Of a stretch of DNA of 64,000 bases, positions 9,451-51,946 are shown in pieces. The notes under the pieces were generated by a model. It worked only from the letters and a program-made list of their open reading frames with translations, was not told the origin of the DNA and searched no databases. A program made the position numbers and the translations under genes. The number at the start of each line of letters is the position of its first letter. The stretch's first letter is position 1. The DNA is from Thermodesulfobacteriota bacterium (GTDB lineage: Bacteria > Desulfobacterota > Desulfobacteria > Desulfobacterales > SURF-7): assembly GCA_049320885.1 (NCBI GenBank), contig JBMORA010000001.1, positions 242,622 to 306,621 of the forward strand. The letters run 5' to 3'.

Positions 9451-10220
9451 AAATCACCGTCATCCAGACCGATCTTTCCTGGGAAGACAGCCAACGCAAC
9501 CTGGCTGGCATCGGCGAAAAACTCCAAGGCCTTGGTGAGGAAACCCACCTGATCATCCTGCCGGAGATGTTCGCCACGGGATTCAGCATGAACGCGGCGA
9601 GCATCGCCCAGGACATGCAGGGACCCGCGGTCGCCTGGCTCCTGGAGCAGGCCGAAAAATCAAAGGCCGACATCGCCGGCAGCCTTGCCGTTCGGGAAAA
9701 GGGCCGTTTTTTCAACCGGCTGATCTGGGTCAGGCCTAGCGGGGACATCCTGACCTACGACAAGAAACACCTGTTCCGGTATGCCGGTGAAGAAAAGGTT
9801 TACACCGCCGGCGACCGGCTTCTGACGGTGGAATTGAACGGCTGGCGGATCCGGCCGTTCATCTGCTATGATCTGCGCTTTCCCTGCTGGTGCCGCAACT
9901 GGAACAAGGCCTACGACCTGGCCGTTTATGTCGCCAATTGGCCGGCCAAACGCGCTGCCCATTGGAAAGCGTTGCTGCCGGCCAGGGCCATCGAAAACCA
10001 GTGTTACGTAGCAGGCGTAAACCGGGTGGGAACGGACGGCAACGGGATGACTTACAGCGGCGACAGCGCCGTGATCGATCCCCTGGGAACCACCCTGTTT
10101 CAGAAAAGCAGCCTGGAATCCGTTCAAACAGTGGAACTTTCCTTGGCGCTGCTGCGGGAATACCGGCAACACTTCCCTGCCTGGATGGATGCCGACGATC
10201 CCGCACCCGCAGCTACATGA
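9438..10220 (+). CDS. yafV: Omega-amidase (carbon-nitrogen hydrolase)
   Basis: LPEMF, YDKKHLF and ICYDLRFP give the E-K-C triad; ARAIENQ; overlaps the ybdL stop. Confidence 0.85.
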   Translation: MRNLKITVIQTDLSWEDSQRNLAGIGEKLQGLGEETHLIILPEMFATGFSMNAASIAQDMQGPAVAWLLEQAEKSKADIAGSLAVREKGRFFNRLIWVRPSGDILTYDKKHLFRYAGEEKVYTAGDRLLTVELNGWRIRPFICYDLRFPCWCRNWNKAYDLAVYVANWPAKRAAHWKALLPARAIENQCYVAGVNRVGTDGNGMTYSGDSAVIDPLGTTLFQKSSLESVQTVELSLALLREYRQHFPAWMDADDPAPAAT

Positions 10221-12459
10221 AACTCTGAATATTGGCCAACCGTTTGGCCAGGTAGGACAACTCGCGCTGGGCGGCTGTCAGATATTCCCGATAGTCCCCC
10301 TTGCTTTCCGGGTTGAAGGAAGTCGATACGCAGGCAAAACGGATCTCGAAAGGCATCTCCTTGACAAGGAACTCGCGATCTTTCAGGAGGGAGGTGATCC
10401 GTGCCAGCGAAGTCCTGGAGTCGTCTTTGGACGTCATGGGTTGAATGACGATCAGCAGGCGGCTGTCGACGATCCCCACGATATCGGTGTCCCGCACGAT
10501 CTTCACCAGGTCTTCCATCACCGCGGAGGTGACATCCTCGCGCGAGATCGAACCCTGGGGCACGGCCTTTTTCGGCGTGACTTTCACGGGTGTCAGCACC
10601 AGGGTTGAAAAAGGCGTATGATACCGTTTTGCGCGGCGGATTTCGCTGTCCAGGATGAACAGGGTGCTGCCCTTGTTCAAGGTCCGTTTGGGGACGCTCT
10701 TCTCCTCGGTTTTCGCCTCCGGCGCGGCAACCATCTCCCGCCGCAATTGCTCGAAACGGTCTTCGGACATCCCCCGTTCCAGCATGGCCTTCTTCACATA
10801 TCCCAGGATGGCGTTGACTTCTTCTTCGGACGCCGCCTCGACACTCAAAATATTGCGGATAGCGGCTTTGCTGTCGGCCGTGTTTTCCCCGGAACGGAGT
10901 TTTCGAAGAACCAACTCGGATTTGAGCTGGCGCATGTTTTCCTCCAGCCGGGCCATGATCCGATATTCGATATCCTTCAGCATCGCGGCATCCAGTTGTT
11001 TGTTTTTCAAGGCTCCGATCAGGTCGTTTCTGGCTTTCGCGTACATGCCGTCCAGCTGTTTGCCTTCGGTTCCGGTTTCGGAGTCGGCTTCATCCAATGC
11101 CATGCGGCTGCCGACGGTTTCGATATACTCCACCAGAATTCCGGTCAACTCGCCCCGGTCGCCTCCGCCCCTCCGGATTTCCGAGGCCAGATAAATCAAT
11201 TCAGCCGCCTCCTTCGGATGTTCCAGGATTTCATGAATCAGGATGTCGCCTTCCAGTCCGATCTCCCTGGCGCTCTGATCCAGCATCCGGGATAGGTTGT
11301 CGCTCTGCAATTCCGCTTTCAATTCCTGGATCAGGTTATAGAAATCCGCTAGGGGCATGCCCTCGGTCATCAGCCCGTGGCGGATTTTCGGCAACAACCG
11401 CCGGAGTTCATCCGCTTCCGGAATCAGCCGCACGATAATCTGGGCCAGACGTCTGATGGGAACCTCGCCTTTCCGGTATTCCTCCTGGACGAGTCGGATC
11501 AACACCGAATCCGTCAGTTCGTCGATTTCCTTTCGGATATCGTTTTCGAATGGATAGACGGTTCCCAGCGCCTTCTGGGCCTCCAGACCTTTCAGCAGCC
11601 GGCCCTTCAGCTCCATCACCCCCTCGGCAAGTCGCTTCAGATCGACATCCGCGTCGCCGCCGCGACCCACCTTATTGCGAATGGATTGGATCTGGCGGAT
11701 GATCATGGGGCCGGGCGTCTGCCCCTTACCCCGATGTTGTTCGGCAAACGCCACATCCGCCCGGATCATCTCCGCGGATATGACTCCCGGATCTTCCAGC
11801 AGGGCGGCAATGGAAAATTGGTTCTCAAAAGACTCGGAAATCGCCTCCGCCATCATCATTCCCAGCACATCCTCCGTGGTGGGGCCGGTCACCTTCGCGC
11901 GCAGGTCAACCACTTCCCCCTGAACCATCCCGCCGATCCGGTTCCCACCCGACGGAATATCACCGTCCAATGCCGATAGCTGCTGCTGTAAACGCTCCCG
12001 CAAAACGACTTCTTCGTCCAGGGTAATTTTTTTAAAAATCACATAATTGATGGTGGCACTGGCGACCCCTTTTGTTTCCAGTGCTTTTTTCATGCTCTTT
12101 ACATCGGGGGTTCTTTTCGTATCGAATACAATCTCCACCAGTGTCTGCAATTCCTCCAGGGTCATCCGCCGCTCGAAGGAAATGGACTGAATTCCGGCCT
12201 TGACGAAATAATCCGCCAGACGCGCTGTATTGATATGATAATCGACGGGTTCGTCTTCGATGAAAAACTTCTCCTGATTCATGGAAAAAATGATGGGCGA
12301 CACTTTTTTGAATCCCTCCTTGAGGGCCTCGAAAAGCTGCTCCACCGACCGGACCACCGCCGGATGTCCGGGATGATACATGGCCGCCTGGTTATATACC
12401 AGATTCATGCTTCGGCCGATCTTATCGGCCGCCAGTTTGCTCAGTTCCGGTTGTTTCAT
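10213..12459 (-). CDS. Large helical protein with C-terminal degenerate GGDEF-like domain
   Basis: N-terminal YHPGHP...GIQSISF module; C-terminal LDSEIRRAKRYHTPFSTLVL...IVRDTDIVG with no GGDEF signature. Confidence 0.7.
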   Translation of the reverse strand: MKQPELSKLAADKIGRSMNLVYNQAAMYHPGHPAVVRSVEQLFEALKEGFKKVSPIIFSMNQEKFFIEDEPVDYHINTARLADYFVKAGIQSISFERRMTLEELQTLVEIVFDTKRTPDVKSMKKALETKGVASATINYVIFKKITLDEEVVLRERLQQQLSALDGDIPSGGNRIGGMVQGEVVDLRAKVTGPTTEDVLGMMMAEAISESFENQFSIAALLEDPGVISAEMIRADVAFAEQHRGKGQTPGPMIIRQIQSIRNKVGRGGDADVDLKRLAEGVMELKGRLLKGLEAQKALGTVYPFENDIRKEIDELTDSVLIRLVQEEYRKGEVPIRRLAQIIVRLIPEADELRRLLPKIRHGLMTEGMPLADFYNLIQELKAELQSDNLSRMLDQSAREIGLEGDILIHEILEHPKEAAELIYLASEIRRGGGDRGELTGILVEYIETVGSRMALDEADSETGTEGKQLDGMYAKARNDLIGALKNKQLDAAMLKDIEYRIMARLEENMRQLKSELVLRKLRSGENTADSKAAIRNILSVEAASEEEVNAILGYVKKAMLERGMSEDRFEQLRREMVAAPEAKTEEKSVPKRTLNKGSTLFILDSEIRRAKRYHTPFSTLVLTPVKVTPKKAVPQGSISREDVTSAVMEDLVKIVRDTDIVGIVDSRLLIVIQPMTSKDDSRTSLARITSLLKDREFLVKEMPFEIRFACVSTSFNPESKGDYREYLTAAQRELSYLAKRLANIQSFM

Positions 12460-12478
12460 TGTCCGCTGGTTTCTCCTT

Positions 12479-13372
12479 CTATCGGAGACAGTTTTTCTGA
12501 TACCATCTCAAGGCGTTGGCAAACGCGGCGCAGGTCCCGAAGCGTTTGCCCGGATGGTGGGCCACGGCTTTTTCAATGATCTGGTCCATCTTGACATTCA
12601 GGTTCGGATTCAGCGCGGAGGGCTTTTGACGGAAAATCCCCTCCACCGCGTCTTTCTTGTGTTTCAGCAAGTCCATGGGGGAATCGTATTCCGGCAGCGG
12701 CAATGTTCCCGCCGCCATCTGAAACAGCATGACGCCCGCGGCGTACACGTCCGCCCGCCTGTCGACGTTCGTCCCGGTGATCTGTTCAGGCGCCATATAC
12801 AGGGGTGTGCCCTGCAACAGGTCTTTTCCGGCGTCATCGCCCTTGAGAAACCTGGCAGTCCCGAAATCGGAGATGAGCGGCCTTTGGGTATGGGATTCGA
12901 TCAAAATATTGGCCGGTTTGATATCCCGGTGGACGATACCCTGTTGATGAGCGTAATCAAGGGCCTCCAGTACCTGGATGACGATGGCCAGGGTGCGTTC
13001 CAGGGGCAGAATCCGCCTGGACGGCAGCGGATGTCTCTGAATGTCCTGAATTTCCCTGGCCAAATCCCTTCCCTGGATCAGCTGCATGCTCATGAACAGG
13101 AATTCCGGCGTTTCGCCGACTTCATATATGGGAATGATATTCGGATGGGACAGAATCGCCGCGGCTTCCGCTTCCTGCTGGAAACGCTCGGCGGCCCTGG
13201 CGGTCATCATGACTTTGGGCAGAATCTTCACCGCGATCTGGCGTTTCAGGGTTTGTTGAAACGCCAGAAACACGATGGCCATGCTTCCCCTGCCGAGTTC
13301 CCTGAGGATCGTCGCGGTACCCACCTGAAAACCGATCAGGTGATGGACGTCATAGGATTGTATGGATGCCAT
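12479..13372 (-). CDS. Hanks-type Ser/Thr protein kinase (stand-alone catalytic domain)
   Basis: LGRGSMA, IAVK, HRDIKPANIL, DFG, GTPLYMAPE and DVYAAG. Confidence 0.93.
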   Translation of the reverse strand: MASIQSYDVHHLIGFQVGTATILRELGRGSMAIVFLAFQQTLKRQIAVKILPKVMMTARAAERFQQEAEAAAILSHPNIIPIYEVGETPEFLFMSMQLIQGRDLAREIQDIQRHPLPSRRILPLERTLAIVIQVLEALDYAHQQGIVHRDIKPANILIESHTQRPLISDFGTARFLKGDDAGKDLLQGTPLYMAPEQITGTNVDRRADVYAAGVMLFQMAAGTLPLPEYDSPMDLLKHKKDAVEGIFRQKPSALNPNLNVKMDQIIEKAVAHHPGKRFGTCAAFANALRWYQKNCLR

Positions 13373-13628
13373 ATCCCTTTGCGATCTTTCCGAAGGTGAC
13401 GTCATGAGTTGGAAAGTAAAACATCCGCCCTGCAGCCTGATCATATTAGACCAGGAAAGTGGAGATTGCAACTCGAAGCAAAACCGCCCCCGGAGCAATC
13501 GCATGGGAATTATCTGCCGCCTTTCTGTCTTTTCGTGTTTCATCTGCGGATAGTTTTATTTTTCTCTACCGATTTTTCCCCAATAATTTCATTGTTATAC
13601 AAATTTTTTCAGAACCGGAACATTGTCC

Positions 13629-13663: not shown

Positions 13664-13945
13664 ATGATTAAATCGTTCCGTTGCCGCGAAACTGAAAAGA
13701 TATTCCATCGTGAATTTTCGAAAAAATTTCATCGGGATCTTCATGTTCAGGCCTTTATGAAACTTAATGCGATTGACGCGGCCGTGAATCTTGAAGACTT
13801 GCGGCAGCCTCCGTCCAACCACCTCGAAGCGCTAAGGGGGGACCGCAAAGGACAGTATAGCATCAGAATCAATGAGAGATGGCGCGTGTGTTTTGAATGG
13901 TGTAACGGCAATGCGGAACAAGTCGAATTTGTTGATTACCACTAA
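13664..13945 (+). CDS. higB: Type II toxin HigB (RelE/ParE superfamily)
   Basis: MIKSF...DLRQPPSNHLEALRGDRKGQYSIRINERWRVCFEW...VDYH. Confidence 0.92.
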   Translation: MIKSFRCRETEKIFHREFSKKFHRDLHVQAFMKLNAIDAAVNLEDLRQPPSNHLEALRGDRKGQYSIRINERWRVCFEWCNGNAEQVEFVDYH

Positions 13946-13955
13946 GGATGCCATT

Positions 13956-14270
13956 ATGACGAAACATCGAATTTCACCGATTCACCCTGGTATGTATCTG
14001 AAGGAATTACTCGACGAGTTACATATAACCCAATACCGTCTTGCTCAGGATTTGGGCGTGCCTGCAATGAGGATCAATCATGTTGTTCATTGTAAAAGAC
14101 CGGTAACGGCCGAGCTGGCATTGCGCTTGGGACGTTATTTTAATCAAAACCCTCGCTATTGGATTAATTTGCAAAGCCGGTATGATATGGATGTTGTCGA
14201 AGATGCTCTTGCAAAACAAATATCTCGTGAAATAAAACCATTGGCGACAAAATCCGGGCAAGGGCGATAA
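13956..14270 (+). CDS. higA: Antitoxin HigA (XRE HTH)
   Basis: PIHPG...RPVTAELALRLGRYF...YWINLQSRYD. Confidence 0.92.
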   Translation: MTKHRISPIHPGMYLKELLDELHITQYRLAQDLGVPAMRINHVVHCKRPVTAELALRLGRYFNQNPRYWINLQSRYDMDVVEDALAKQISREIKPLATKSGQGR

Positions 14271-18441: not shown

Positions 18442-18726
18442 TGCTGCATTGTCATTGTTACCGATAATGACCGATAAAGAGTCATCCCGACAGCATAACC
18501 CCGAAAACAGCCGTGCCGATGAGGAACAGATGGATTTGCGGATATGCTGCGGATGAAGTCCCGTGGCATTCACCCCAGAGATGAAAGGGCCGAAGCATCC
18601 GTCCGGCAGCATCCGGCGGGAATTCCTGCGCGCAATGACGTTCGATTTCCGTGTTGTACGCGGCCCCCTGAAACGAGATCAGCCAGCAAGTCAGCAAACG
18701 AATTTATCGGAGAGGAGGAAGGAACA

Positions 18727-19818
18727 ATGGTCGACAAAAACAAGAAGCCCCTCAAGAAGGACGCTGCCGAGATGGTCCAGGCATTTGAACAGATTTTGAA
18801 GCAACCGGAGGAAACCTCGGAGCTGAGCCAGAACGCCATCGGCGTGGATATCGGGACTTCGAAAACCGTCTACGCCGTGAATGGTAAAGAGAGCGGAAGC
18901 AAGGATTATTTTTCCCAACTGAACGCCTTCATCGAGGTCCCCTACTCCCGTTTTACTGAAAACATATTGAAACAAAACAAAATCCACCATTACAAACTCG
19001 GGAACTCCCTCATCGTGTACGGTGACGGCGCGGAACTCTTCGCCAACATGCTGAATACCGAAACCCGGCGCCCCATGCGCAACGGCCTCCTGAACGCCAA
19101 GGAAGCCAATGCCATTGAAATCATGAAGGGCATTCTGGACGACATGATCCCCTCCGCCGCCCTGCCCAATACCCCGCTCTGCTTTTCCATCCCCGGAGCG
19201 CCGAAGAATGCCACAACGGATATCATCTATCACGAGGCGATTCTGAAACGCCATCTGGATGAAAAAGGCTTCAAATCCCGAAGCATCAACGAGGGCATGG
19301 CGGTTGTTTTTTCAGAACTGGAAAAGGAGAATTTCACCGGGTTCGGCATCAGCTGCGGCGGCGGGATGTGCAATGTCTGCCTGTCCTATCTCTCCATCCC
19401 GCATATCACCTTCAGCATCATCAAGGGCGGGGATCATATCGACGATGCAGTGGCCTCGGTCACCAATGAGGTCAACACCCGCATCCGGGATATCAAGGAG
19501 AATCAGCTCGATCTGCTGGCGAAGGCGGACAATGAGATCGAGGACGCCCTGCAGATCTATTATGATGATCTCATCCGGACGCTGATCCGCTCCATGAAGG
19601 AGAGTATTGAACAGACGTCGAAGATTCCAAAATCGGATGCCCCCGTCCCGATTGTGCTCAGCGGCGGCACGGCCAAACCGAACGGATTCAGGGAGCGGTT
19701 TGAAAAATGCCTGAAAGAGGTGGACTTCCCGCTGGAAATCAGCGAAATCCGGCTGGCCAAGGACCCGCTGAAAGCCACCGCCAACGGCGCCCTGATCGCC
19801 GCCATGTACGAAGGTTGA
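18727..19818 (+). CDS. Actin-fold ATPase, volactin-like
   Basis: Phosphate-1 GVDIGTSK, connect-1 INEGMAV, phosphate-2 ISCGGGMCN, adenosine LSGGTA and connect-2 DPLKATANGA; strong GGAGG RBS. Confidence 0.85.
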   Translation: MVDKNKKPLKKDAAEMVQAFEQILKQPEETSELSQNAIGVDIGTSKTVYAVNGKESGSKDYFSQLNAFIEVPYSRFTENILKQNKIHHYKLGNSLIVYGDGAELFANMLNTETRRPMRNGLLNAKEANAIEIMKGILDDMIPSAALPNTPLCFSIPGAPKNATTDIIYHEAILKRHLDEKGFKSRSINEGMAVVFSELEKENFTGFGISCGGGMCNVCLSYLSIPHITFSIIKGGDHIDDAVASVTNEVNTRIRDIKENQLDLLAKADNEIEDALQIYYDDLIRTLIRSMKESIEQTSKIPKSDAPVPIVLSGGTAKPNGFRERFEKCLKEVDFPLEISEIRLAKDPLKATANGALIAAMYEG

Positions 19819-19940: not shown

Positions 19941-21407
19941 ATGATCCAACTCTCCGAACCCGAAAGAATACCGCCGAAGGAGTATCGGCAGCGAATCGAA
20001 AAACTGGCGGAGCAAATCTCCGATCCGGTAAAAAAACTGCGATTCATTCATCAGGCCCTTGCCGACTATTCGCTAAACGAATCCGTTGAAAGCGGGGGAA
20101 AACATCGACGGAAAACGGAAGCGGCAAAAGGCGGGGAGTCCCTGTTTCGCAAAAACGGCAACCACCGGCCGGAGGAAACCGGAGGCGCGGAATACCGGCT
20201 CCAGCCGCCCCTCGCCGGCAAATCCCGCCATTACTTGGTGTATCTGGTCTGCGGCATGGGGGTGATGCTCTTCGGATTTGCCTTTATCCTGTTCCTTTCG
20301 AACGGAAGCCGGTATGGAAACCTTTTCGGTAAAACCGCTGCAAAAACCGAAACCGATGTCTTTCATTATATCATCCCGACGGTGACGTCGGAATTGTCCC
20401 CGGCGCCGGTTTTTCCCAAAGCCTTGCCGGGAGAGGATGCGCAGAAGCCGCCGGCATTCCCCGAATACCTGGACACCCTGATCTGGATGATCGAAAAGAC
20501 AGCCGAAAGCGAGTATTACAGCAACCGGTTGCGGATCCACACCGGCCAAACCGTCGACAACACCCCCCGGCGCTACCGCCGGATTCCGATCCAGGCCGCT
20601 TCCAGCCCGAATGACTGGCCGGCCACCGGCAACGTGGCCGGCATTCTGTTCCATGCCGCGGAAAGCGACATCTATGAGTTCAAGCCGGAAATGACGCAAT
20701 CCATCAAGGAATACAGCCGTCTGCTGGCCCGGTATCTCCGGAAAAAAAAAGCCTATCACTATTTTATCGACCGGTTCGGCGAGGTCTACCGCTTGGTCCG
20801 CGAGGATCATGCCGCCTATCACGCGGGAAATTCGATCTGGGCCGATTCGGAAAACATTTACCTGGATTTAAACAATGCCTTCATCGGGATCTGTTTCGAA
20901 GGCAAGGATTTCGAGCACAACCCCAAGGGAAAGTCGAAAACCGGCGGGAACGGCGACTCGACTCACATCGTTGCCATGGCGCAATCCTCCATCAATGAGG
21001 CCCAGTTGCGGTCGGGAAAGGAGCTGACCGACTGGTTGCGGGTGAAATACCGCATTTCGCAGAAAAACTGCGTGCCCCACGCCCTGGCATCGGTGAACCC
21101 ATACGATCTGCTGATCGGACATCATCTGGACTTGTCATATGAGTTCCCGTTTGATATGTTTGGGTTGAGCAACAAATATGAAGAACCGATTCCTGCCATT
21201 ACCGAATTCGGGTTTTCCTGTAACAACTATTTTGTCCAGGTCATGAAGGGGAGGCTCTGGCCCGGCATTATCCGTTCCGAGGAAACCCTTCGGCAGCGCG
21301 CCGATGAAACAAAAATACCGCTCAAGGAATATCGAAAACTCCTGAACAACCGGTTCGCCGGATTGTTCAAATGGCAAAAACAGATCAAACAATCCGAAGG
21401 GTCCTGA
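19941..21407 (+). CDS. Membrane-anchored N-acetylmuramoyl-L-alanine amidase (Amidase_2/PGRP-like)
   Basis: One TM helix; ILFHAAES, YHYFIDRFGEVYRLV, AYHAGNSIW, NNAFIGICFEG, EAQLRS and VPHA. Confidence 0.82.
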   Translation: MIQLSEPERIPPKEYRQRIEKLAEQISDPVKKLRFIHQALADYSLNESVESGGKHRRKTEAAKGGESLFRKNGNHRPEETGGAEYRLQPPLAGKSRHYLVYLVCGMGVMLFGFAFILFLSNGSRYGNLFGKTAAKTETDVFHYIIPTVTSELSPAPVFPKALPGEDAQKPPAFPEYLDTLIWMIEKTAESEYYSNRLRIHTGQTVDNTPRRYRRIPIQAASSPNDWPATGNVAGILFHAAESDIYEFKPEMTQSIKEYSRLLARYLRKKKAYHYFIDRFGEVYRLVREDHAAYHAGNSIWADSENIYLDLNNAFIGICFEGKDFEHNPKGKSKTGGNGDSTHIVAMAQSSINEAQLRSGKELTDWLRVKYRISQKNCVPHALASVNPYDLLIGHHLDLSYEFPFDMFGLSNKYEEPIPAITEFGFSCNNYFVQVMKGRLWPGIIRSEETLRQRADETKIPLKEYRKLLNNRFAGLFKWQKQIKQSEGS

Positions 21408-21498: not shown

Positions 21499-22452
21499 AT
21501 GAAGACGCTCAAAAGGAATTGCCCGCATTGCCAGAGTGAAAAAACCGCCCCCATCCCCCAAACATCCGTCGCCAGACTCATCGGTTACTTGGTACCCCGC
21601 CGACCCTATTTATGCCTGGATTGCCGGAAGCGTTTCAACCAGTATGAAAATCCGCTGAAAACCGTATCCGCCAAAATCATGGCCGGCGCCGCAGCCGTTC
21701 TGCTCCTGTTGATCCTTTTCCTTGTGATGCGGCCCCAAACCCCGCAACCGCAGCCGGAAGAACAGGCCCCCTCCATGAGAATCCCCGCCAAGCAGGCGGA
21801 ACCGGAAGCCATGCAAATCCCCAAAATGCCGTTGGAGGAAAAGGGTGCGCCCTTGCCTTCCGGAGAAACGGCCGAGGCCTTGCCGAACCCGAATCAGCCG
21901 GAAGCGGTTCCCGTTCCAACGGCAGATCAGCCGCTGCCCGCCGAAACCGCCCCCCCGGCAAAGGCCCCGGCATTGGAACAGCAGCAGCCGGTCGCCCCAA
22001 CGGCGGAAACACCCGTGAAACAACTGCCGGAGGGACCCCGGCCGATTCCGGCCGCGGTGACTCCCGGAACGGAGTCCACACCCGGTGACAGAAGGGAACG
22101 CGTGACGGCTTCCCCCCATGCGAACCAGCCAAGAACCCTGAAACGCATTTCCGTCCAAAATACCGATAACGGTCCGACCATCCATATCCAGGCGGACGGT
22201 CCCATCGATGCCCATCAATCCTTCTTGCTCCCCGACCCGCATAGACTGGTCATCGACCTTGCGGGGAAATGGGAAAAACCCGGATTTTACGCCATGGCGG
22301 TGGAACACGATCTCATCCGGTCGGTCCGGGTATGGAAACATGATAAAAAGCTGCGGATCGTCTGCGATCTGCAATCCGGCCTGGGGCGGGAACCGGTTTT
22401 TAAAACAGCTTCCGACGGCTTGGTCGCCGAGTTGGGCGCAACGCCCCCCTGA
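21499..22452 (+). CDS. Zn-ribbon + TM + Pro-rich linker + AMIN domain protein
   Basis: CPHC...CLDC, hydrophobic helix, P/A/E-rich spacer, then FLLPDPHRLVIDL...IRSVRVWKH..KLRIVCDL. Confidence 0.8.
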   Translation: MKTLKRNCPHCQSEKTAPIPQTSVARLIGYLVPRRPYLCLDCRKRFNQYENPLKTVSAKIMAGAAAVLLLLILFLVMRPQTPQPQPEEQAPSMRIPAKQAEPEAMQIPKMPLEEKGAPLPSGETAEALPNPNQPEAVPVPTADQPLPAETAPPAKAPALEQQQPVAPTAETPVKQLPEGPRPIPAAVTPGTESTPGDRRERVTASPHANQPRTLKRISVQNTDNGPTIHIQADGPIDAHQSFLLPDPHRLVIDLAGKWEKPGFYAMAVEHDLIRSVRVWKHDKKLRIVCDLQSGLGREPVFKTASDGLVAELGATPP

Positions 22453-22482
22453 CGTTATCGAAAACGGAAAGGAAACGGATGG

Positions 22483-23577
22483 ATGGTCGAACGAACCGAC
22501 GAAATGGCACCGCGCTTGCCGAAGGTCACCACAAAGTTGAAAATGCCCGGCATGCTCCTGAAGTTACCAGGCGCCGTCAAACTGGCCATCGCCGCGCTGG
22601 TGGTGCTGATGATCGCCTTTAATGCCCTGTTCACCTATGTGCAGCCCAATGAATTCGGCATCAAGGTCGTGCGCATCGGTATCAACCGGGGAGTCCAGAA
22701 GGAAATTTACACGGCCGGTCTGCACTGGGTCATCCCCGGTTTTCAGCAGATCTTCCGCCTGCCGCGGGACATTCAGGTTTTGGAGCTGACAGCGTCGCCG
22801 AAGACCGCTGCCCTGCCGGCCCGGAAGGATCGGGTCGCCCATATTCAGACATCGGACGGTTTTTATGTGGATGTGGATGTTTCCATCCTGTACCGGATCA
22901 ATGACCCCTTTCTCGTGTTCACCAAAATCGGCCCCGGCAGCCTGTATGAGGATAACGGGATTCTGCCGAAGGCGGAGCCCGCTCTCAAGGAAACCTTGGG
23001 CAAATTGACCACCGAAGATTTTTACAACAGCCCCTTGCGGGTGAAGAAGGCACGGGAAGCGCGGGAACTGCTGAATGCGGAACTGAATCCGAAAGGCATC
23101 CAGGTTGAGCAGGTGCTGGTGCGCTATTTCGTTTACAGCCCCGAAATCCAGAAAAACATCGAGGAGAAAAAGCTGAAGGATCAGCTGGTGTTTACGAACC
23201 AGGCCGCGGCCCGGGCCGCCAAGGAAGAGGCGGAATTGAAAAAAGTCATCCAGGAGGGTCTCGTGATGGTGGATGTGGAGCTCGAACAGGGCCGGGCCTA
23301 TGTCACCCGCAAGGAAGCGGAAAAAGATCTGTATGTGCGGACCAAAAAAGCCGAAGCCGACCTGCTGGTGAAACTGGCGGATGCGGAAAAAGTCCGTTTG
23401 AAAAACGATGCCATGAAAGGCGTCGGTTCCGAACGGATGGTGGGCTTAAAAATGGCGGAAGTGTACAAAGGGCTGGATCTCATCGTTCTGCCCAGCGACG
23501 GCAGCGGCGGCGTCAATCCCCTTGATTTGAACAATGCCTTGAACCTATTTGATGTCCGCAAGGGAGATACGCCATGA
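22483..23577 (+). CDS. SPFH/band 7 domain membrane protein
   Basis: N-terminal TM, YVQPNEFG, GLHWVIPG, QTSDGFYVDVDVSILYRI and A/E-rich coiled coil. Confidence 0.85.
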   Translation: MVERTDEMAPRLPKVTTKLKMPGMLLKLPGAVKLAIAALVVLMIAFNALFTYVQPNEFGIKVVRIGINRGVQKEIYTAGLHWVIPGFQQIFRLPRDIQVLELTASPKTAALPARKDRVAHIQTSDGFYVDVDVSILYRINDPFLVFTKIGPGSLYEDNGILPKAEPALKETLGKLTTEDFYNSPLRVKKAREARELLNAELNPKGIQVEQVLVRYFVYSPEIQKNIEEKKLKDQLVFTNQAAARAAKEEAELKKVIQEGLVMVDVELEQGRAYVTRKEAEKDLYVRTKKAEADLLVKLADAEKVRLKNDAMKGVGSERMVGLKMAEVYKGLDLIVLPSDGSGGVNPLDLNNALNLFDVRKGDTP

Positions 23578-24641
23578 AACGCTTCCTGTTCCTTGCCTTC
23601 CCGCTGATCTGCTGTCTCTGCCTGCCGGCTTGCCTGCTGTACAGCACCGGCGAAAACGAAGTGGGCGTACGTACCCGGAAACTGGCCATCTGGGGACCGC
23701 CGGGGGTCGAGGAGCAGGTTTATGCCCCGGGCTCCACCCATGTGTTTCTGCCCTTCATCAATGACTGGCACACCTTCGACACCAAACTGCAGAATCTTGA
23801 AATGGTCTATGAACCGTCACGCGGAGAGCGCCGGACCCATGATGATCTGCTGTTCAAGAGCATCGACGGCAACGATATCGGACTGGACGTCATCATCGCC
23901 TACCGCATCGACGCCGCACAAGCACCTTACATCCTGCAGCATGTGGCCGTCGACAACCACACCCTGCGGGAAAAGATCGTCCGCACCATCGCGCGCAGCA
24001 AACCCCGCGATATCTTCGGCGAGTTGACCACCGAAGAATTTTACGTGGCGGAAAAACGGGAACTGCAGGCCCAGAAAGCCAAGGAAGTGCTCCAGGAGAT
24101 GCTCGGCCCGATGGGGATCATCGTCGAAAAAGTGCTCACCAAGGATTACCGGTTCAATCGCGAATACCAGAAGGCCATCGAGGACAAAAAAGTCGCCGAT
24201 CAGCAGGTGCAGAAAAACAAATCCGCCCGGCATGCGGCCCTGGAGGAATACAAGCGCAAACTGGAGGAAGCCAAGGGCGAGGTGAACAAGATGATCGCCG
24301 ACGCGGACGGCGCCTATCGCAGAGCCAAAATCGAGGCCGATGTATACTACGAGCGGCAGCAGATGATGGCGGAGGCCATCAAGGCGGAAGGAATCGCCGA
24401 AGCCAAAGGCATCCAGGAGATGAACAACGCCCTGGCCGGTTCGGGTGGCGAAGCGCTCGTCAAACTGCGCATCGCCGAGGCCCTTCAGGACAAGAAAATC
24501 ATGCTGCTGCCGGTATCCACCGGGGGGATGAACCTGAAAACAACGGATATCAACCGGCTGATTGAAACCATGGGAATCCGCGCCATGGCCGGAAACGATT
24601 ACAAGCAACGCAGTGTCGAAAAAGCAACCGATACAAGATAA
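23574..24641 (+). CDS. SPFH/band 7 domain membrane protein
   Basis: ENEVGV, PGSTHVFLPF, KSIDGNDIGLDVIIAYRID and YQKAIEDKKVA coiled coil; ATGA overlap with the upstream paralog. Confidence 0.85.
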   Translation: MKRFLFLAFPLICCLCLPACLLYSTGENEVGVRTRKLAIWGPPGVEEQVYAPGSTHVFLPFINDWHTFDTKLQNLEMVYEPSRGERRTHDDLLFKSIDGNDIGLDVIIAYRIDAAQAPYILQHVAVDNHTLREKIVRTIARSKPRDIFGELTTEEFYVAEKRELQAQKAKEVLQEMLGPMGIIVEKVLTKDYRFNREYQKAIEDKKVADQQVQKNKSARHAALEEYKRKLEEAKGEVNKMIADADGAYRRAKIEADVYYERQQMMAEAIKAEGIAEAKGIQEMNNALAGSGGEALVKLRIAEALQDKKIMLLPVSTGGMNLKTTDINRLIETMGIRAMAGNDYKQRSVEKATDTR

Positions 24642-45970: not shown

Positions 45971-46344
45971 CGGAAAGACCTCCAGATTGTAATGATGGCG
46001 GTTCTGAAAAAATCCGGAACAATTGATCTCAGGCTGGACAATTAACAATAAGGATCGGGTGAAACGGATGCAGGAAACTGTAAAATAGCCTGACAGGATA
46101 GCAAGTTAGCATTGCCTGCTCGTCCAAGCAAGAATAATGTTGGAACTGTTTGTCTGGATGAGATGAATCGCTGAAAATGAGATGGCCGTCACGAAACGGA
46201 AAAGTGGCGGAATCTCCAGCTTTGTGATAGCATGCGCCCCATCGCCCGTCGGCTTCCCGTCAGGGGCAGGCTGTCATCGTCTTCCGAACAACCGCAACCA
46301 TGCAAACGGGGATATCAGACCATATCCCCCCAAGGGGATTCGCA

Positions 46345-49300
46345 ATGAAAAAGACCGTCTTGGCGCTATGGCTCTTGGTTTTCACTTCCATCCTGTTCCC
46401 CGCCGGCTGTGAAAAAAAGGAGGAAGTCCAACCCATCGGCCCGCCCGATCCGAAAATCGTCTCGTATCATTCCGACGATCGCATCTCGCGGCAGGGACCG
46501 ATCAAGGTGGTTTTCACCAGCGATCTGGCAGCCCCCCACCTGATCGACCAGGTTCTGGAGCCGTCCCCGTTCACCTTCACTCCGGCCATCACTGGCAAGG
46601 CTCTTTTCCAGAACCCGCGGACCCTGGTCTTCATCCCCTCCCCCCGACTGCCCGGCGGAAATAATTTCGACGTCAGCGTCGATATGACGGCCTTTCTGCC
46701 CAAGGAAGCCGAGAACGCGGTTTTCGGTTTCAAGTTCCGGACCATCGAACCGGATTTCGACATCACCCATGACAATCTGGAACCGGTGGCCCCCGACAAA
46801 TTGCAGTTCCAGCGGCTCACGGGCAAGATCACCACGGCCGACACGGCCGAGGCCGGGGAAGTCGAAAAAGTCCTGAAGGCCGTCCAGGAAGGGAAAGCCC
46901 TTGCCGTCACCTGGACCCATGCCGGCGACAAACGCAGTCATCTCTTCACCGTGGACGGCATCCAGCGCGGCGAAAATCCCTCCCAGGTGGAGCTGACCTG
47001 GGACGGCGCTTCCATGGAGGTCAAGAAAACCGGGAAAGAAACCATCGAGGTACCGGCCCTGCAGGCGTTTTCCATGTCCGGTTTTCAGGTCCTGGAAAAA
47101 GAGGAGCGCCATCTCGCCGTCCAATTTTCCGACCCCCTGGAAAAAAATCAGGACCTGCGGGGTCTCATCCGCGTCGGTAATCTGACGGAACTGCGCTTTG
47201 AAATCATCGACAACAGTGTCCATATTTACAGCCTGACGGGTCTGTCCGGCAGCAACACCGTGTCGCTGGAACCGGGCATCCGCAACTCCATGGGCAAAAA
47301 ACTGCCGGAACCGGTTTCCTTCGAGGTGAATTTCGAGCCCATGAAACCCCAGGTCCGTTTTGCCGGCAAGGGGGTCATTCTGCCCACCTCCCGGGAACTC
47401 GTCCTGCCCATCGAAGCGGTCAACCTCCGGGCCGTGACCGTTTCGGCGCTCCACATCTACGAGACCAGCATCCCCCAGTTTCTTCAGGTCAACACCCTGG
47501 ACGGCGAGAAGGAACTGAAACGCGTGGGCCGGACGGTCTGGAAAAAGAAGATCCCCCTGGAAACGCCGCCGGACAAAAACAACCAATGGGTCCGCTACGG
47601 GCTGGATCTCGCGAGTCTCGTGGAAAAGAACACCCACGGCATTTTCCGTCTGCAACTCACCTTCGGCAGGGAGGACATCATCTACCCCTGCAAGGGCGAG
47701 CCGGCGCCCCTGAAAAACGCCGCCCCATCCGCCCTTCCCGATGCGACGGAAACGGACAGCGAGGACGACGAGCTGGAAGACAGCCTCTGGGATTCCGTTG
47801 AAAACTACTACGGGGATTCGGAATACGAGGATTCCTATGACCAGCGGACCAACCCCTGCAGCCGCAGCTATTACCGCAGGTATTACGACCATAACATCAC
47901 CGTGGCCCGCAACGTGCTGATCTCGGATATCGGCCTCATCGCCAAACGCGGGACGGATAAGATCCTTTTCGCGGCGGCCACCGGCATCCGCAGCGCCGCC
48001 CCCCTCGCGGGGGCCGAGCTGACGCTGCTGGACTACCAGCAACAGGTGATCAGCCAAGGCAAGACCGATGAGCAGGGCCTGGCGCGGCTGTCTTTCGAAC
48101 GCAAGCCCTACCTCCTGGTAGCGAACCAAAACGGCCAGACTGCGTATCTGCGGGTGGACGACGGACAGGCCCTGTCCCTGAGCCATTTCGACATCGCCGG
48201 CCAGGAAGTCACGGAGGGAATGAAAGGCTTCATCTACGGCGAGCGCGGGGTATGGCGGCCGGGCGACACCATTTTCCTGACCCTGATTCTCCTGGATGAA
48301 ACCCGTACCCTCCCGGCCACCCACCCGGTGGTCTTCGAACTGCGCAACCCCAAAGGCCAGATCGTCAAGACCCATCAGACCCGGGAGGCGTTGAACGGGT
48401 TTTACTGTTTTCAGACCGCCACCGCCGAAGACGCCCCCACCGGCACCTGGACCGTGCGCGCCAAGGCGGGCGGTGCCGTTTTCGAGAAAAGCCTGAGAAT
48501 TGAAACCGTGATGCCCAACCGCTTGAAAGTGAAGCTGGACCTGGGTCCCGAAGGCACGCAGCTCGAAGGCGGCACCATCCAGGGAGAACTTTCGGCCGCC
48601 TGGCTCCACGGCGCCATCGCCAAAAACCTGAAAAGCGATGTGGAATTGAATTTCAGCGCCGTCAAAACCACCTTTAAAAACCATGAGGAATATGTCTTTG
48701 ACGACCCCGCCCGGGAGTACCAACCGGAACGACAGACTGTTTTCGAAGGCAGCCTGGACGAAAACGGCCGGGTGGCGATCAAGGCCGAGATCAGCGCCAA
48801 AAATCTCTCCCCGGGGATGCTCAGCGCGGATTTCCGAACCAGGGTGTTTGAATACGGCGGCGCGTTCAGCGTCGATCGGGTCAGCTACCCCTATCATCCG
48901 TATCAGCGCTATGTGGGCCTGCGTCTTCCACCCGGAGACAGCGCCCGGAACATGCTGCTGACCGACACCAGGCACCCGGCCCGTATCGTCCTCCTGGATC
49001 CCCGGGGGAAACCGGTTCCCAAAGGCCGGGTCAAGGTCGAGCTGGCCAAAATCAAATGGCGCTGGTGGTGGGACAAGGGCGCCGATGAACTGGCCGGTTT
49101 TGCCTCGGGGGACGAGTATCGGCCCATGGCTGCCACGGAGCTGGAGGTCGTGAACGGCCAGGCCGAATGGCCTTTTGAAATCAAGTATCCGGAATGGGGA
49201 CGTTTCTTCGTCCGGGTCACGGATCTGGAAGGCGGTCATTCCACCGGCCGGACCTTTTACGCGGATTGGCCCGGCTGGGCCGGCAGAGGCCGGCAGGACA

Positions 49301-51921
49301 TGCCGGGCAGCGCTTCGATCCTGAGTTTTTCAACGGATAAGACGGATTACCAGGTGGGTGAGGAAGCCATCCTGACCATCCCCACCGGCAAGGAAGGCCG
49401 GGTGCTGGTAAGCGTCGAATCCAATTCGAGAGTCCTGCATACCGCCTGGGTGCGGCCGGAAGGCGAAACCACGCGCTACCGGCTGAAAACGACGCCGGAA
49501 ATGGCCCCGAATGTCTACCTGCACGCGACCTATCTCCAGCCCCACGGCCAGGGGACCAATGATCTGCCCATCCGCCTCTATGGCGTCACGCGCATGAACG
49601 TGCATGATCCGGCCACCAGGCTGGCGCCGGTGATCCGGAGCCCGGAGGTGTTGGTTCCCGGCCAGAAGGCCGGAATCACGGTCAGCGAGGATTCCCACCG
49701 GCCCATGACCTATACCCTGGCACTGGTGGACGAAGGGCTGTTGGATCTGACCCGTTTCAACACACCGGATCCCTGGGCGTATTTCTACCAGACCGTGGCC
49801 CTGGGCGTGAAAACCTGGGATCTCTTCGACCTGGTGTCAGGAGCCTATGGCGGCAAACTGGAGAAACTGCTGGCCATCGGCGGCGACGAGGCCCTGATGG
49901 ACAACGCCAAGAAAAAAGCCCGGCGGTTTCCACCCCTGGTGCGTTTTATAGGACCTTTTCACCTGGAAGCCGACGGCGCCCGAACCCATGAAATCGATAT
50001 CCCGCCAACCATCGGCTCCGTGCGGATCATGCTGGTGGCGGCTCACGAAAAATCCTTCGGCTTTGCCGAAAAAGCCGTCCATGTCCGCAAACCGCTCATG
50101 GTGGCGAGCACCCTGCCCAGGGTCTTGGGTCCGGAAGAAACCGTCGCCTTCCCCATCACGGTTTTTGCCATGGATCCCGGGATCAGGGACGTCACCGTCC
50201 GGATCAGAACCGAAGGCCCCCTCGCTGCCGAAGGTGAAACCGAAAAACGCATTGCCTTCACCACCCAGGGCGAGGAGGTCGTGGAGATGAAACTCGCCGC
50301 CGGAGCCCAACCGGGAATCGCCCGGGTTTTCGTAACAGCCGAGGACGGTGGTGAAAGCGCCGCGGAAACCACCGAAATCGATGTCCGCGCGAATTCCGAG
50401 CCGGTGACGGAAGTGGTTCATGGAACCATCGAAACGGGCGGTGTTTTCGAGCGGGAAATCAACCTGCCGGGCAGACCCGGCACCAACAGCGCCTCCCTGG
50501 AAATATCCGCCTTCATGCCCATGGACATCGGCAAACGCCTGGACTACCTGATCCATTATCCCCACGGCTGCCTGGAGCAAACCGTTTCCGCCGCCTTCCC
50601 CCAATTGTATCTCGGCGAGCTGCTCCGGCTTTCCCCGCGGAAGCAGGACCAGGTGCAGCGACACATCGAGACGGCGCTTCAAAAGCTGCGCTCTTTCCAG
50701 TCCCTCAACGGCGGATTTCAATATTGGCCCGGAGATCAGCGCACCGAAGACTGGGTGTCCAATTATGCCGGGCATTTTCTGGTCGAAGCGGAAAAAACCG
50801 GCTATCTCGTGCCCCGGCAGATGATCTCCCAATGGTTGGCGTATCAACGGGCCAAGTCGCGCTCCTGGGTGACGGGCACCGTCGCTTCCGAGCTGATCCA
50901 GGCCTATCGCCTGTTCACCCTCGCCCTGGCCGGTGATCCGGATCTGGGCGCCATGAACCGGCTGCGGGAGTCCAAAGACCTGCCCGTGACCGCCAAGTGG
51001 AACCTGGCCGCCGCCTATTTCATGGCCGGCCAACCGGAAGCCGCCGCGCAACTGGCCAAGGCCGGGGATACCACGGTTGCACCCTACCGGGAACTGGCCA
51101 ATACCTATGGCTCCGATTTGCGCGACAAGGCCATGATTCTCCAGGCCATGTGCCTGATGAACCGGGCCGGGGAAGGCGAAGCCATCGCCCGGGAAATTTC
51201 CGCAAGCCTGACGGGCGACAAATGGCTCAGCACCCAGTCCGGCGCCTATGAATTGATGGCCATGGCGCGTTACTCCGGCGCCCTGACAGGCGCCCGGATG
51301 GATTTTGAATATGCCTGGAACGGCTCTCCGGTTGCGCCGGTTTCGGATTCCACTCCGGCAATTCAGATACCGCTGGAGCCGGGCGGCGGGACCTCCGGCA
51401 AGCTGACCATCCGCAACACCGGTTCAACGACCCTGTACCCCCGGCTCCTCCTGCGGGGGATCCCGGCCATGGGCGCTGAAACCGCATCCGAAAACGGCCT
51501 GGGCATGTCCATGGTCTTTCTGGATTCTTCCGGACGCGACCTCGATCCGGTAACCATCGAACAGGGAACGGATTTCACCGCCCGGGTGACCATCCGGAAC
51601 ACCGGCCAGGCGGGGGCCTACGAGGCCGTGGCCCTCAGCGAGGTATTTCCATCCGGCTGGGAAATCCGCAACCTGCGCCTGGACCCCGCCGTGGAATCCG
51701 ACAATCATTTATTTGAGTACCAGGATGTCCGGGATGACCGGGTGTACACCTATTTCCATATCGGCCAGGGCGAGTCCAGAACCTACTCCGTCCTGCTGAA
51801 CGCCGCCTATCGCGGGAAATTCTATCTTCCACTGATCAAGACGGAAGCCATGTACGACGGCACCATCCACGCCCGGATTCCGGGGAAATGGGTGGAAGTC
51901 GTCAAGGCCGGCATACAATAG
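46345..51921 (+). CDS. yfhM: Bacterial alpha-2-macroglobulin lipoprotein
   Basis: Lipobox PAG-C, ERGVWRPGD, thioester GCLEQ, DVRDDRV and EAMYD; followed by pbpC. Confidence 0.93.
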   Translation: MKKTVLALWLLVFTSILFPAGCEKKEEVQPIGPPDPKIVSYHSDDRISRQGPIKVVFTSDLAAPHLIDQVLEPSPFTFTPAITGKALFQNPRTLVFIPSPRLPGGNNFDVSVDMTAFLPKEAENAVFGFKFRTIEPDFDITHDNLEPVAPDKLQFQRLTGKITTADTAEAGEVEKVLKAVQEGKALAVTWTHAGDKRSHLFTVDGIQRGENPSQVELTWDGASMEVKKTGKETIEVPALQAFSMSGFQVLEKEERHLAVQFSDPLEKNQDLRGLIRVGNLTELRFEIIDNSVHIYSLTGLSGSNTVSLEPGIRNSMGKKLPEPVSFEVNFEPMKPQVRFAGKGVILPTSRELVLPIEAVNLRAVTVSALHIYETSIPQFLQVNTLDGEKELKRVGRTVWKKKIPLETPPDKNNQWVRYGLDLASLVEKNTHGIFRLQLTFGREDIIYPCKGEPAPLKNAAPSALPDATETDSEDDELEDSLWDSVENYYGDSEYEDSYDQRTNPCSRSYYRRYYDHNITVARNVLISDIGLIAKRGTDKILFAAATGIRSAAPLAGAELTLLDYQQQVISQGKTDEQGLARLSFERKPYLLVANQNGQTAYLRVDDGQALSLSHFDIAGQEVTEGMKGFIYGERGVWRPGDTIFLTLILLDETRTLPATHPVVFELRNPKGQIVKTHQTREALNGFYCFQTATAEDAPTGTWTVRAKAGGAVFEKSLRIETVMPNRLKVKLDLGPEGTQLEGGTIQGELSAAWLHGAIAKNLKSDVELNFSAVKTTFKNHEEYVFDDPAREYQPERQTVFEGSLDENGRVAIKAEISAKNLSPGMLSADFRTRVFEYGGAFSVDRVSYPYHPYQRYVGLRLPPGDSARNMLLTDTRHPARIVLLDPRGKPVPKGRVKVELAKIKWRWWWDKGADELAGFASGDEYRPMAATELEVVNGQAEWPFEIKYPEWGRFFVRVTDLEGGHSTGRTFYADWPGWAGRGRQDMPGSASILSFSTDKTDYQVGEEAILTIPTGKEGRVLVSVESNSRVLHTAWVRPEGETTRYRLKTTPEMAPNVYLHATYLQPHGQGTNDLPIRLYGVTRMNVHDPATRLAPVIRSPEVLVPGQKAGITVSEDSHRPMTYTLALVDEGLLDLTRFNTPDPWAYFYQTVALGVKTWDLFDLVSGAYGGKLEKLLAIGGDEALMDNAKKKARRFPPLVRFIGPFHLEADGARTHEIDIPPTIGSVRIMLVAAHEKSFGFAEKAVHVRKPLMVASTLPRVLGPEETVAFPITVFAMDPGIRDVTVRIRTEGPLAAEGETEKRIAFTTQGEEVVEMKLAAGAQPGIARVFVTAEDGGESAAETTEIDVRANSEPVTEVVHGTIETGGVFEREINLPGRPGTNSASLEISAFMPMDIGKRLDYLIHYPHGCLEQTVSAAFPQLYLGELLRLSPRKQDQVQRHIETALQKLRSFQSLNGGFQYWPGDQRTEDWVSNYAGHFLVEAEKTGYLVPRQMISQWLAYQRAKSRSWVTGTVASELIQAYRLFTLALAGDPDLGAMNRLRESKDLPVTAKWNLAAAYFMAGQPEAAAQLAKAGDTTVAPYRELANTYGSDLRDKAMILQAMCLMNRAGEGEAIAREISASLTGDKWLSTQSGAYELMAMARYSGALTGARMDFEYAWNGSPVAPVSDSTPAIQIPLEPGGGTSGKLTIRNTGSTTLYPRLLLRGIPAMGAETASENGLGMSMVFLDSSGRDLDPVTIEQGTDFTARVTIRNTGQAGAYEAVALSEVFPSGWEIRNLRLDPAVESDNHLFEYQDVRDDRVYTYFHIGQGESRTYSVLLNAAYRGKFYLPLIKTEAMYDGTIHARIPGKWVEVVKAGIQ

Positions 51922-51946
51922 AAACTTGCGGCGGAGATGGTTTCAC

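Follow-up and report, generated by a model that had tools for sequence, protein, structure and literature searches.

In bacteria, actins steer the synthesis or hydrolysis of the cell wall, as in the systems of MreB and MreBH with RodZ or LytE, and in that of FtsA with FtsEX, EnvC and an amidase. MreBH is described as co-localizing synthases and hydrolases in the available part of PMC6403190. The archaeal actin volactin (VolA, HVO_2015) of Haloferax volcanii forms dynamic, ParM-like filaments that span the cytoplasm and are bound to the membrane by their tips, according to the available text of PMC10869688, which names no membrane anchor for them; the accessible part of a preprint adds a role in the formation of archaeal tissue (bioRxiv 10.1101/2024.10.19.619234). 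The volactin family is already known, from this one archaeon and from a Pfam model, PF25216. Here we describe a member of the family in a bacterium, where it is encoded directly beside a membrane-bound peptidoglycan amidase. The two genes lie in a stretch of 64,000 nucleotides from a Thermodesulfobacteriota bacterium of the order Desulfobacterales (GenBank assembly GCA_049320885.1, contig JBMORA010000001.1, positions 242,622 to 306,621 of the forward strand), to which we refer as the window.

The locus both resembles and departs from the systems that stand closest to it. Like haloarchaeal volactins, the actin of the window (P0001) is a PF25216 protein with a serine-type phosphate-2 motif, and it is 37–39% identical to them over about 90% of the protein (five plasmid-collection records). 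In contrast to them, it is found in a host with peptidoglycan, MreB and FtsA, falls into a separate clade, carries an extension of 36 amino acids and has a membrane amidase as its partner. The arrangement recalls ParM–ParR, in which the actin has a dedicated adjacent adaptor, ParR, that binds the barbed ends of ParM (PMC6599009, in the portion available), although here the binding is a model, the adaptor is a membrane wall hydrolase instead of a DNA-binding protein, and the genes are chromosomal. ParM is absent among the sequence matches and the top fold matches of P0001. In the MreB and FtsA systems the actin is connected with its hydrolase indirectly or transiently, whereas in this locus the wall-cutting enzyme is itself membrane-spanning and is the predicted binder of the actin. 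Two further proteins, Bbp and Mad28, also occur in Desulfobacterota; the available parts of PMC10580974 and PMC12713370 describe them as MamK-like or magnetosome-linked. Bbp of Ca. Electrothrix gigas has 335 amino acids and was automatically annotated as MamK, and the same part of PMC10580974 names no archaeal relatives for it. MamK-family proteins keep the phosphate-2 aspartate and form a clade of their own, unlike P0001.

The volactin-family actin

The gene for P0001, an actin-like ATPase of 363 amino acids, occupies 18727..19818 on the + strand, behind a ribosome-binding site AGGAGG at 18713..18718 (+) that lies 8 nt 5′ of the ATG. An alternative in-frame start at 18544 would give a protein of 424 amino acids, which is unlikely because the open frame in the relative L002 spans only 364 amino acids from the identical methionine. 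A profile search of the host's own assembly (5.6 Mb, 98% complete) finds this volactin gene in single copy. Its GC content at third codon positions (GC3) is host-like, at 0.74 compared with 0.745–0.747 in two neighbouring housekeeping-type genes. A promoter and terminator scan was uninformative, with 5 promoter-like sites at the locus against 4.1 expected.

The initial annotation, made from the sequence of the window, had proposed that this protein is a bacterial homolog of volactin, the actin linked to disk shape in H. volcanii, and the proposal stands. PF25216 matches P0001 with 263.9 bits against a cut-off of 35, covering residues 37–359 and model positions 2–321 of 321, and the protein falls into one clade with the haloarchaeal volactins. 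The sequence blocks that had suggested the relationship are all present in the translation, and each of them aligns with a haloarchaeal PF25216 protein of Natrinema that is 37% identical to P0001 over 325 amino acids (E = 6e-79) and itself scores 466 bits on PF25216. The haloarchaeal comparison used PF25216 members other than HVO_2015 itself, and archaeal sampling consisted of three named plasmid-collection records together with proteins without names. The PF25216 cut-off was passed in 1 of 14 control genomes, H. volcanii being among those passing. We regard membership of the volactin family as virtually certain.

A profile search and phylogeny had been suggested as a check; against MreB, MamK, FtsA and PilM, they place the actin with the volactins and with none of these four. 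Membership of the other actin families was rejected in each case. P0001 scores 36.7 bits on the MamK model NF040964 (cut-off 400; true MamK-family controls 409–435), 19.5 bits on MreB (cut-off 293) and 20.3 bits on EutJ (cut-off 182); for salactin the values are 18.3 bits on PF25229 (cut-off 27.1) and 26.3 bits on NF053533 (cut-off 400). The BeeR model NF053558, present in the library with a cut-off of 530, gives no match at E ≤ 0.1, and there is no FtsA or PilM profile match. MreB forms a separate clade, as do FtsA and PilM in the larger tree; the trees held neither salactin nor EutJ. MamK-family actins of five Desulfobacterota genomes (L019–L022, L025; 409–435 bits on their own model) reach 30–39 bits on the Volactin Pfam model, and since they weakly pass or approach its cut-off, low PF25216 scores can mislabel MamK-like proteins.

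Two trees were built from rows thinned by identity, excluding intein-split and partial sequences. The first (FastTree) has 151 rows, with 135 volactins kept of 276 and MamK-family, MreB, FtsA and PilM outgroups; the second (IQ-TREE, LG+G4) has 94 rows, with 88 volactins kept of 248 and only MamK-family and MreB as outgroups. All volactins form one clade with a support of 100 in both, apart from the outgroups. Within the IQ-TREE tree P0001 sits in a 12-row Desulfobacterota-type clade (SH 100) that is part of a 26-row clade (SH 92) containing all 19 rows from amidase-linked loci. The haloarchaeal volactins fall into a separate 47-row clade (SH 100), which also includes every one of the 27 viral rows and proteins from clusters that bear the names Euryarchaeota, Minisyncoccales and Planctomycetota. 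The root of both trees rests on long branches and so lends little weight to any direction of ancient transfers.

The five actin motifs reported by the initial annotation are all present: phosphate-1 (D41-x-G43-T44), connect-1 (E189, which aligns with MamK E143), phosphate-2 (S209-C-G-G-G-M-C-N216; 19351..19374, +), adenosine (S312-G-G-T) and connect-2 (G354). The absence of the phosphate-2 aspartate, also reported there, proves to be a family trait, serine occupying that position in 262 of 276 full-domain homologs; D41 and E189 are each found in 268 of these and N216 in 269. Three haloarchaeal volactins read [IV]SFGAGM at phosphate-2 and so have the same serine type. From our own alignment we define the family motif as S-x-G-x-G-M-x-N, with which P0001 agrees. 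Five homologs (P0187, P0213, P0216, P0220, P0263) carry inteins at three different cysteine positions within the phosphate-2 motif, which suggests that the serine-type motif is functionally essential. Judged by alignment and model, the nucleotide site of P0001 is intact and of the volactin type.

The AlphaFold2 model of P0001 (109 sequences) is a confident actin fold, with a pLDDT of 94.4 and a pTM of 0.90. Among solved structures MamK comes nearest in fold (Z 28.9, rmsd 2.9, 296 aligned), effectively tied with BeeR (Z 28.2, rmsd 3.4, 302 aligned); MreB and actin follow with Z near 26, and all are at 14–21% sequence identity. MamK and BeeR are about 19–20% identical to P0001, which falls far below the MamK cut-off and has no BeeR profile match. 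There is no PilM chain among the 50 fold matches listed, a search by sequence found no solved volactin structure, and a search of viral fold models gave no close match (best E 2.5e-10, to Hsp70). The N-terminal extension, noted earlier as about 35 amino acids, comprises residues 1–36 (18727..18834, +), the Pfam match starting at residue 37. The model places an amphipathic helix at residues 10–25 of it, with a moment of 0.54 and a net charge of 0. The extension varies among relatives and is absent from the three haloarchaeal members; BeeR and Mad28 also carry N-terminal extensions, according to the available parts of PMC11929497 and PMC12713370.

A word-index search gave 2237 homologs of P0001 at E ≤ 0.001 among 5362 candidates, and a library clustered at 50% gave 327 at E ≤ 1e-30. 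Most of their clusters in the ESM Atlas belong to Thermodesulfobacteriota, Acidobacteriota or Uroviricota, assignments that are based on few members. The closest relatives are bacterial, at 55–91% identity in Desulfobacterales and about 50% in Acidobacteriota, and the closest named loci are in Desulfobacterales metagenome-assembled genomes, at 89–91%. A volactin at E ≤ 1e-20 is found in 41 of 301 genomes of the order, and a strong match (at least 190 bits) in 9 of 400 other genomes of the phylum.

The membrane amidase and its co-inheritance with the actin

The initial annotation had also placed a peptidoglycan amidase beside the actin. This is correct: directly 3′ lies the gene for a single-pass membrane N-acetylmuramoyl-L-alanine amidase of the Amidase_2 type (P0002, 488 amino acids; 19941..21407, +; PF01510 58.7 bits, cut-off 26), which co-occurs strongly with the actin. 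As read from its sequence, P0002 crosses the membrane with a single helix, between a cytoplasmic hairpin and a periplasmic zinc amidase whose catalytic residues are intact. The predicted helical hairpin, assigned from conservation and from the complex model discussed below, comprises residues 10–40 (19968..20060, +) and carries the motif I-x-D-P-V-x-K-L-x-F. Its P29 and L33, conserved at 96 and 100%, respectively, in 71 rows, are the most conserved residues of the N-terminal region; a Pfam scan of residues 1–120 gave no match. The transmembrane helix is placed at residues 99–117 (20235..20291, +), with a Kyte-Doolittle peak of 2.44, and a segment above 1.6 on this scale is present in all 70 homologs. 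Residues 172–488 (20454..21404, +) form the periplasmic amidase domain by profile, fold and residue conservation. Within it H238, E320, H380 and D397 are each 99% conserved (71 rows, near-duplicates included); by analogy to AmpD and AmiD we take H238, H380 and D397 to be the zinc ligands and E320 to be catalytic. The AlphaFold2 model (pLDDT 93.6) and the profile both match AmiD, AmpDh2 and AmpD, the TM-score of the fold matches by query being only 0.33–0.39. P0002 has the catalytic core and residues of these enzymes, and differs from them in being a single-pass protein of the inner membrane, in its conserved cytoplasmic hairpin and in about 150 extra periplasmic residues. In the ESM Atlas most clusters of the amidase belong to Acidobacteriota.

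The amidase is distributed with the actin. Eighteen of 301 genomes of the order, the host counted in, have a volactin at least 60% identical to P0001, and in all 18, which span 8 genera and 6 families, the amidase lies directly downstream. Only one further genome of the order (G534) has the amidase, giving 19 of 301, and the 260 genomes in which no volactin was matched all lack it. A sample of the phylum gave the amidase in 2 of 401 genomes, in both cases adjoining a volactin. Of 575 confirmed metagenome loci the best 80 were compared; 68 of these have the amidase adjacent to the actin, and of the 12 that lack it 11 end within 600 bp of the actin on one side. The amidase may stand on either side of the actin gene, downstream or upstream depending on the locus, which means that the adjacency has outlasted rearrangement; the Acidobacteriota-type loci keep the pair with the gene order flipped, and named Acidobacteriota proteins are 72–87% identical to amidase-linked metagenome loci. 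Pairwise distances of actin and amidase are correlated (Spearman 0.73, 47 pairs, a value reached by 0 of 1000 permutations), which shows joint inheritance and not contact. Taken together we consider it very probable that the two proteins are functionally coupled.

Some loci of the same kind show further features. Tandem volactin paralogs stand ahead of a single amidase in L100, L111 and L114, and a TPR-Ig-AAA ATPase gene family is found near 16 of 31 Acidobacteriota-type loci. Apparent actin–amidase fusions in L082, L087 and L129 were rejected, being overlapping open frames and not single ones.

The predicted complex and competing explanations

A complex of volactin residues 30–363 with amidase residues 1–60 was modelled from an alignment of 53 rows for each, with three controls. 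It scored 0.80, the best of the three controls scoring 0.03; the score mark is reached by 116 of 157 solved complexes and by 2 of 215 mismatched pairs, rates that are rough when applied to our own alignments. The runs share at least 68% of their contacts, with a partner pLDDT of at least 68. On the amidase the modelled contacts lie within residues 10–40 and include P29 and L33. On the actin they involve residues 34, 195, 199, 202–204, 221–224, 299–304, 357, 360 and 361, which derive from the end of the connect-1 helix, the hairpin after phosphate-2 and the C-terminal helix. From their offsets relative to E189, S209 and G354 we presume that they correspond to Y143, G168, I345 and L349 of actin, the hydrophobic cleft. 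This cleft is exposed only on barbed-end subunits of actin filaments, as stated in the available part of PMC12304888. The hairpin of the amidase is predicted to dock into the equivalent cleft of the volactin, and on the strength of the model we consider direct binding of the two proteins to be probable.

We propose that the pair is a two-gene module, in which a volactin-family actin has a single-pass inner-membrane peptidoglycan amidase as its dedicated adaptor. The actin would bind ATP and form dynamic filaments, by comparison with H. volcanii volactin, MamK, BeeR and ParM, and the hairpin would bind the cleft between subdomains IA and IIA. In actin and ParM that cleft is unoccupied only in monomers and in subunits at the barbed end, and the amidase might therefore cap, nucleate or hold filament tips at the membrane, in the manner of ParR. 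The filament would gather or position the amidase, and perhaps gate it, so that the wall would be cut at chosen spots. This would occur alongside the MreB and FtsA of the host, which carries its own MreB, FtsA and PilM; the genes around its MreB and FtsA, read by eye, resemble the usual rod and division clusters, and the volactin is therefore an extra actin. Local remodelling is our guess for the process served, cell separation and the insertion of an envelope structure being others that may be named. For the whole scheme, in which a filament of the ParM/ParR kind would be held at its tip by a wall hydrolase, we see the case as evenly balanced.

A number of observations weigh against this proposal. 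With the phosphate-2 aspartate absent, hydrolysis might be slow or might not occur. The amidase of G534 has no volactin within 1.5 kb on either side (the assembly is 88% complete, in 800 contigs; two volactins of another type are found elsewhere in it), the HU-fused type at L083 has an actin with amidase-free flanks of 3–5 kb, and the amidase copy of G619 is frameshifted. The pair is patchy (18 of 301 genomes) and so is not essential to the order. The genomes compared are kin and so do not count as independent, and the distance correlation would equally arise from a cassette whose genes were transferred together. As for the complex, the modelling may place any amphipathic helix in the cleft of an actin, recalling solved actin complexes, and three controls are too few to exclude such an artefact; residues 1–29 of the actin were cut from the model, and its own helix 10–25 could compete for the cleft. 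Finally, conservation at the interface is only slightly raised in amidase-linked volactins, at 0.73 against an average of 0.66; the corresponding values in the amidase-free bacterial type are 0.69 and 0.70.

The same co-occurrence and the same modelled complex would be expected if the actin-fold protein made no filament and acted as a monomer or small oligomer that binds the cytoplasmic tail of the amidase and clusters or switches the enzyme according to nucleotide state. There is a precedent in PilM–PilN. The predicted site on the actin is the one occupied by the neighbouring subunit in filaments, so that one-to-one binding would block polymer growth, and the missing canonical aspartate would also suit a non-polymerizing protein. 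However, the member of the family that has been studied polymerizes in vivo, haloarchaeal members share the serine motif, and the nearest folds are the filament formers MamK and BeeR, PilM being absent from the 50 listed. We consider such a switch unlikely.

A second possibility reverses the logic of the module. The amidase might serve mainly as a membrane anchor that grips the wall for a filament crossing the cytoplasm, giving mechanical support or moving DNA or other cargo, and cutting would only let the anchor insert or move. H. volcanii volactin does span the cytoplasm from anchored tips, many homologs lie on phage contigs, and others are fused to HU, receiver, zinc-ribbon or weakly matching ParB-HTH domains, the HU fusions lying inside the amidase-linked clade. 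Yet conservation of the four catalytic residues at 99% goes beyond the needs of a passive anchor, and the subtype of the window has no fixed DNA-binding neighbour gene among the loci compared. This reading appears to us quite unlikely.

It is very unlikely that the two genes merely travel together, with products that do not interact and an actin that works alone. The patchy distribution and variable flanking genes would fit such a cassette, as would the single amidase without actin (G534), the single actin without amidase (L083) and the lack of this amidase in 22 of the 23 genomes that carry the other type of bacterial volactin (40–47% identity). Against it, the genes have stayed adjacent in two phyla whichever of them comes first, and each is almost never found without the other; moreover, the periplasmic enzyme carries a conserved motif on its cytoplasmic side, and the predicted interface scores far higher than the controls.

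A recent transfer that gave the bacterium an archaeal shape factor from haloarchaea, one reading of the cross-domain transfer raised by the initial annotation, is hardly credible and was rejected: the identity to haloarchaeal volactins is far above that to solved bacterial actins (18–20%), but the nearest relatives are bacterial, the haloarchaeal sequences nest in their separate 47-row clade, GC3 is host-like, and forcing the clade of the window together with the haloarchaeal clade lowers the log-likelihood by 141.8 (approximately unbiased test, p = 5.96e-82, LG+G4, with rows picked after the tree was seen), so that an older, mobile family fits better.

Related volactins, neighbouring genes and implications

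The tip-anchored module that we propose may have counterparts elsewhere in the family. A second Desulfobacterota type of volactin (L045, L049, L050, L151–L162; 40–47% identical to P0001) is followed in 15 of 20 loci by a 145-residue protein without Pfam match, and a ParA/MinD ATPase is often nearby (8 of 20 loci); the volactin and the 145-residue protein are probably another actin–adaptor module. A DUF7139 gene stands upstream of the volactin in two of three haloarchaeal loci (L039:3809-4708, L040:3917-4825), the third having an upstream gene of similar size that fell outside the domain scan, and the DUF7139 protein is a candidate membrane anchor for archaeal volactin. Volactin fusions include HU, receiver, zinc ribbon, weak ParB-HTH, tandem double volactin and a Wzz/ParA-type tail (P0096, P0103, P0121, P0122; P0127; P0133, P0136, P0141; P0164, P0167, P0170, P0177; P0129, P0144; P0191), and on sequence grounds several of them suggest a connection with DNA.

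Volactin-family genes are also common on large phage contigs (L163–L252, L051, L052; IMG/VR contigs of up to 377 kb), and matches at 33% identity are found in two genomes of uncultured phages (485 and 595 kb). Of the pattern matches in IMG/VR, one alignment confirmed 219 of 234 and a second one 10 of 128. Beside the viral genes a 109-residue protein family is found in 53 of 92 loci and RuvB in 45 of 92, with RIIB, HNH and PAAR genes as further recurrent neighbours; we found no PHROG family covering phage volactins. These actins may form a spindle or a DNA-positioning system. The amidase is found in 0 of the 92 viral or phage loci, and a prophage lysis cassette was rejected as the origin of the pair in the window, on this ground and because its actin has no PHROG match and its neighbours are metabolic or regulatory.

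The genes around the pair appear to be local. Downstream lies a membrane protein with a cysteine-rich N-terminus and a C-terminal AMIN domain (21499..22452, +; Pfam AMIN 32.8 bits), followed by two overlapping SPFH/Band 7 genes (21499-24641, +, for the three together). The AMIN gene accompanies the actin only in close relatives, in 11 of 47 Desulfobacterota-type loci, many of which are short, and the two SPFH genes occur with the actin in only 1 of 8 named loci; neither was accepted as a core part. Further away on the − strand, at 10213-13543, are a Ser/Thr protein kinase and a 748-residue protein without Pfam match. We take a small gene pair at 13667-14270 (+) to resemble a HigB/HigA toxin–antitoxin module, and the 1873-residue protein and following gene at 46300-54406 (+) to resemble alpha-2-macroglobulin and PBP1c, respectively.

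How new is a bacterial volactin? We found no literature on bacterial or phage volactins or on a volactin–amidase pair, in a search whose coverage left out most subscription papers. The available part of a salactin preprint mentions divergent bacterial homologs, the main text of the huge-phage survey PMC7162821, as far as it was available, does not mention 'actin', and in the ESM Atlas there are bacterial clusters that already bear the name volactin. Volactin has nonetheless been treated as an archaeal actin, and the locus shows that the family is common in bacteria and phages. It also offers a concrete and soluble candidate binding pair, the 60-residue tail of the amidase and the actin, with the contact residues named. 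The carriers are abundant, poorly cultured bacteria of sediment and soil.

We suggest tentatively, and with more doubt than confidence, that volactins are actins of a widespread and mobile class, present in bacteria, archaea and large phages, and that the filament tips of each subfamily are served by a separate adaptor. That of Desulfobacterota and Acidobacteriota would be a trans-membrane wall hydrolase, by which filament ends would directly place or trigger the cutting of peptidoglycan. If this is true, an actin in the cytoplasm would be linked directly, with no intermediary, to a wall hydrolase in the periplasm, and the pair would be a third wall-directing actin system beside those of MreB and FtsA. 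It would also provide a defined answer to how filaments of the volactin type are attached by their tips to membranes.

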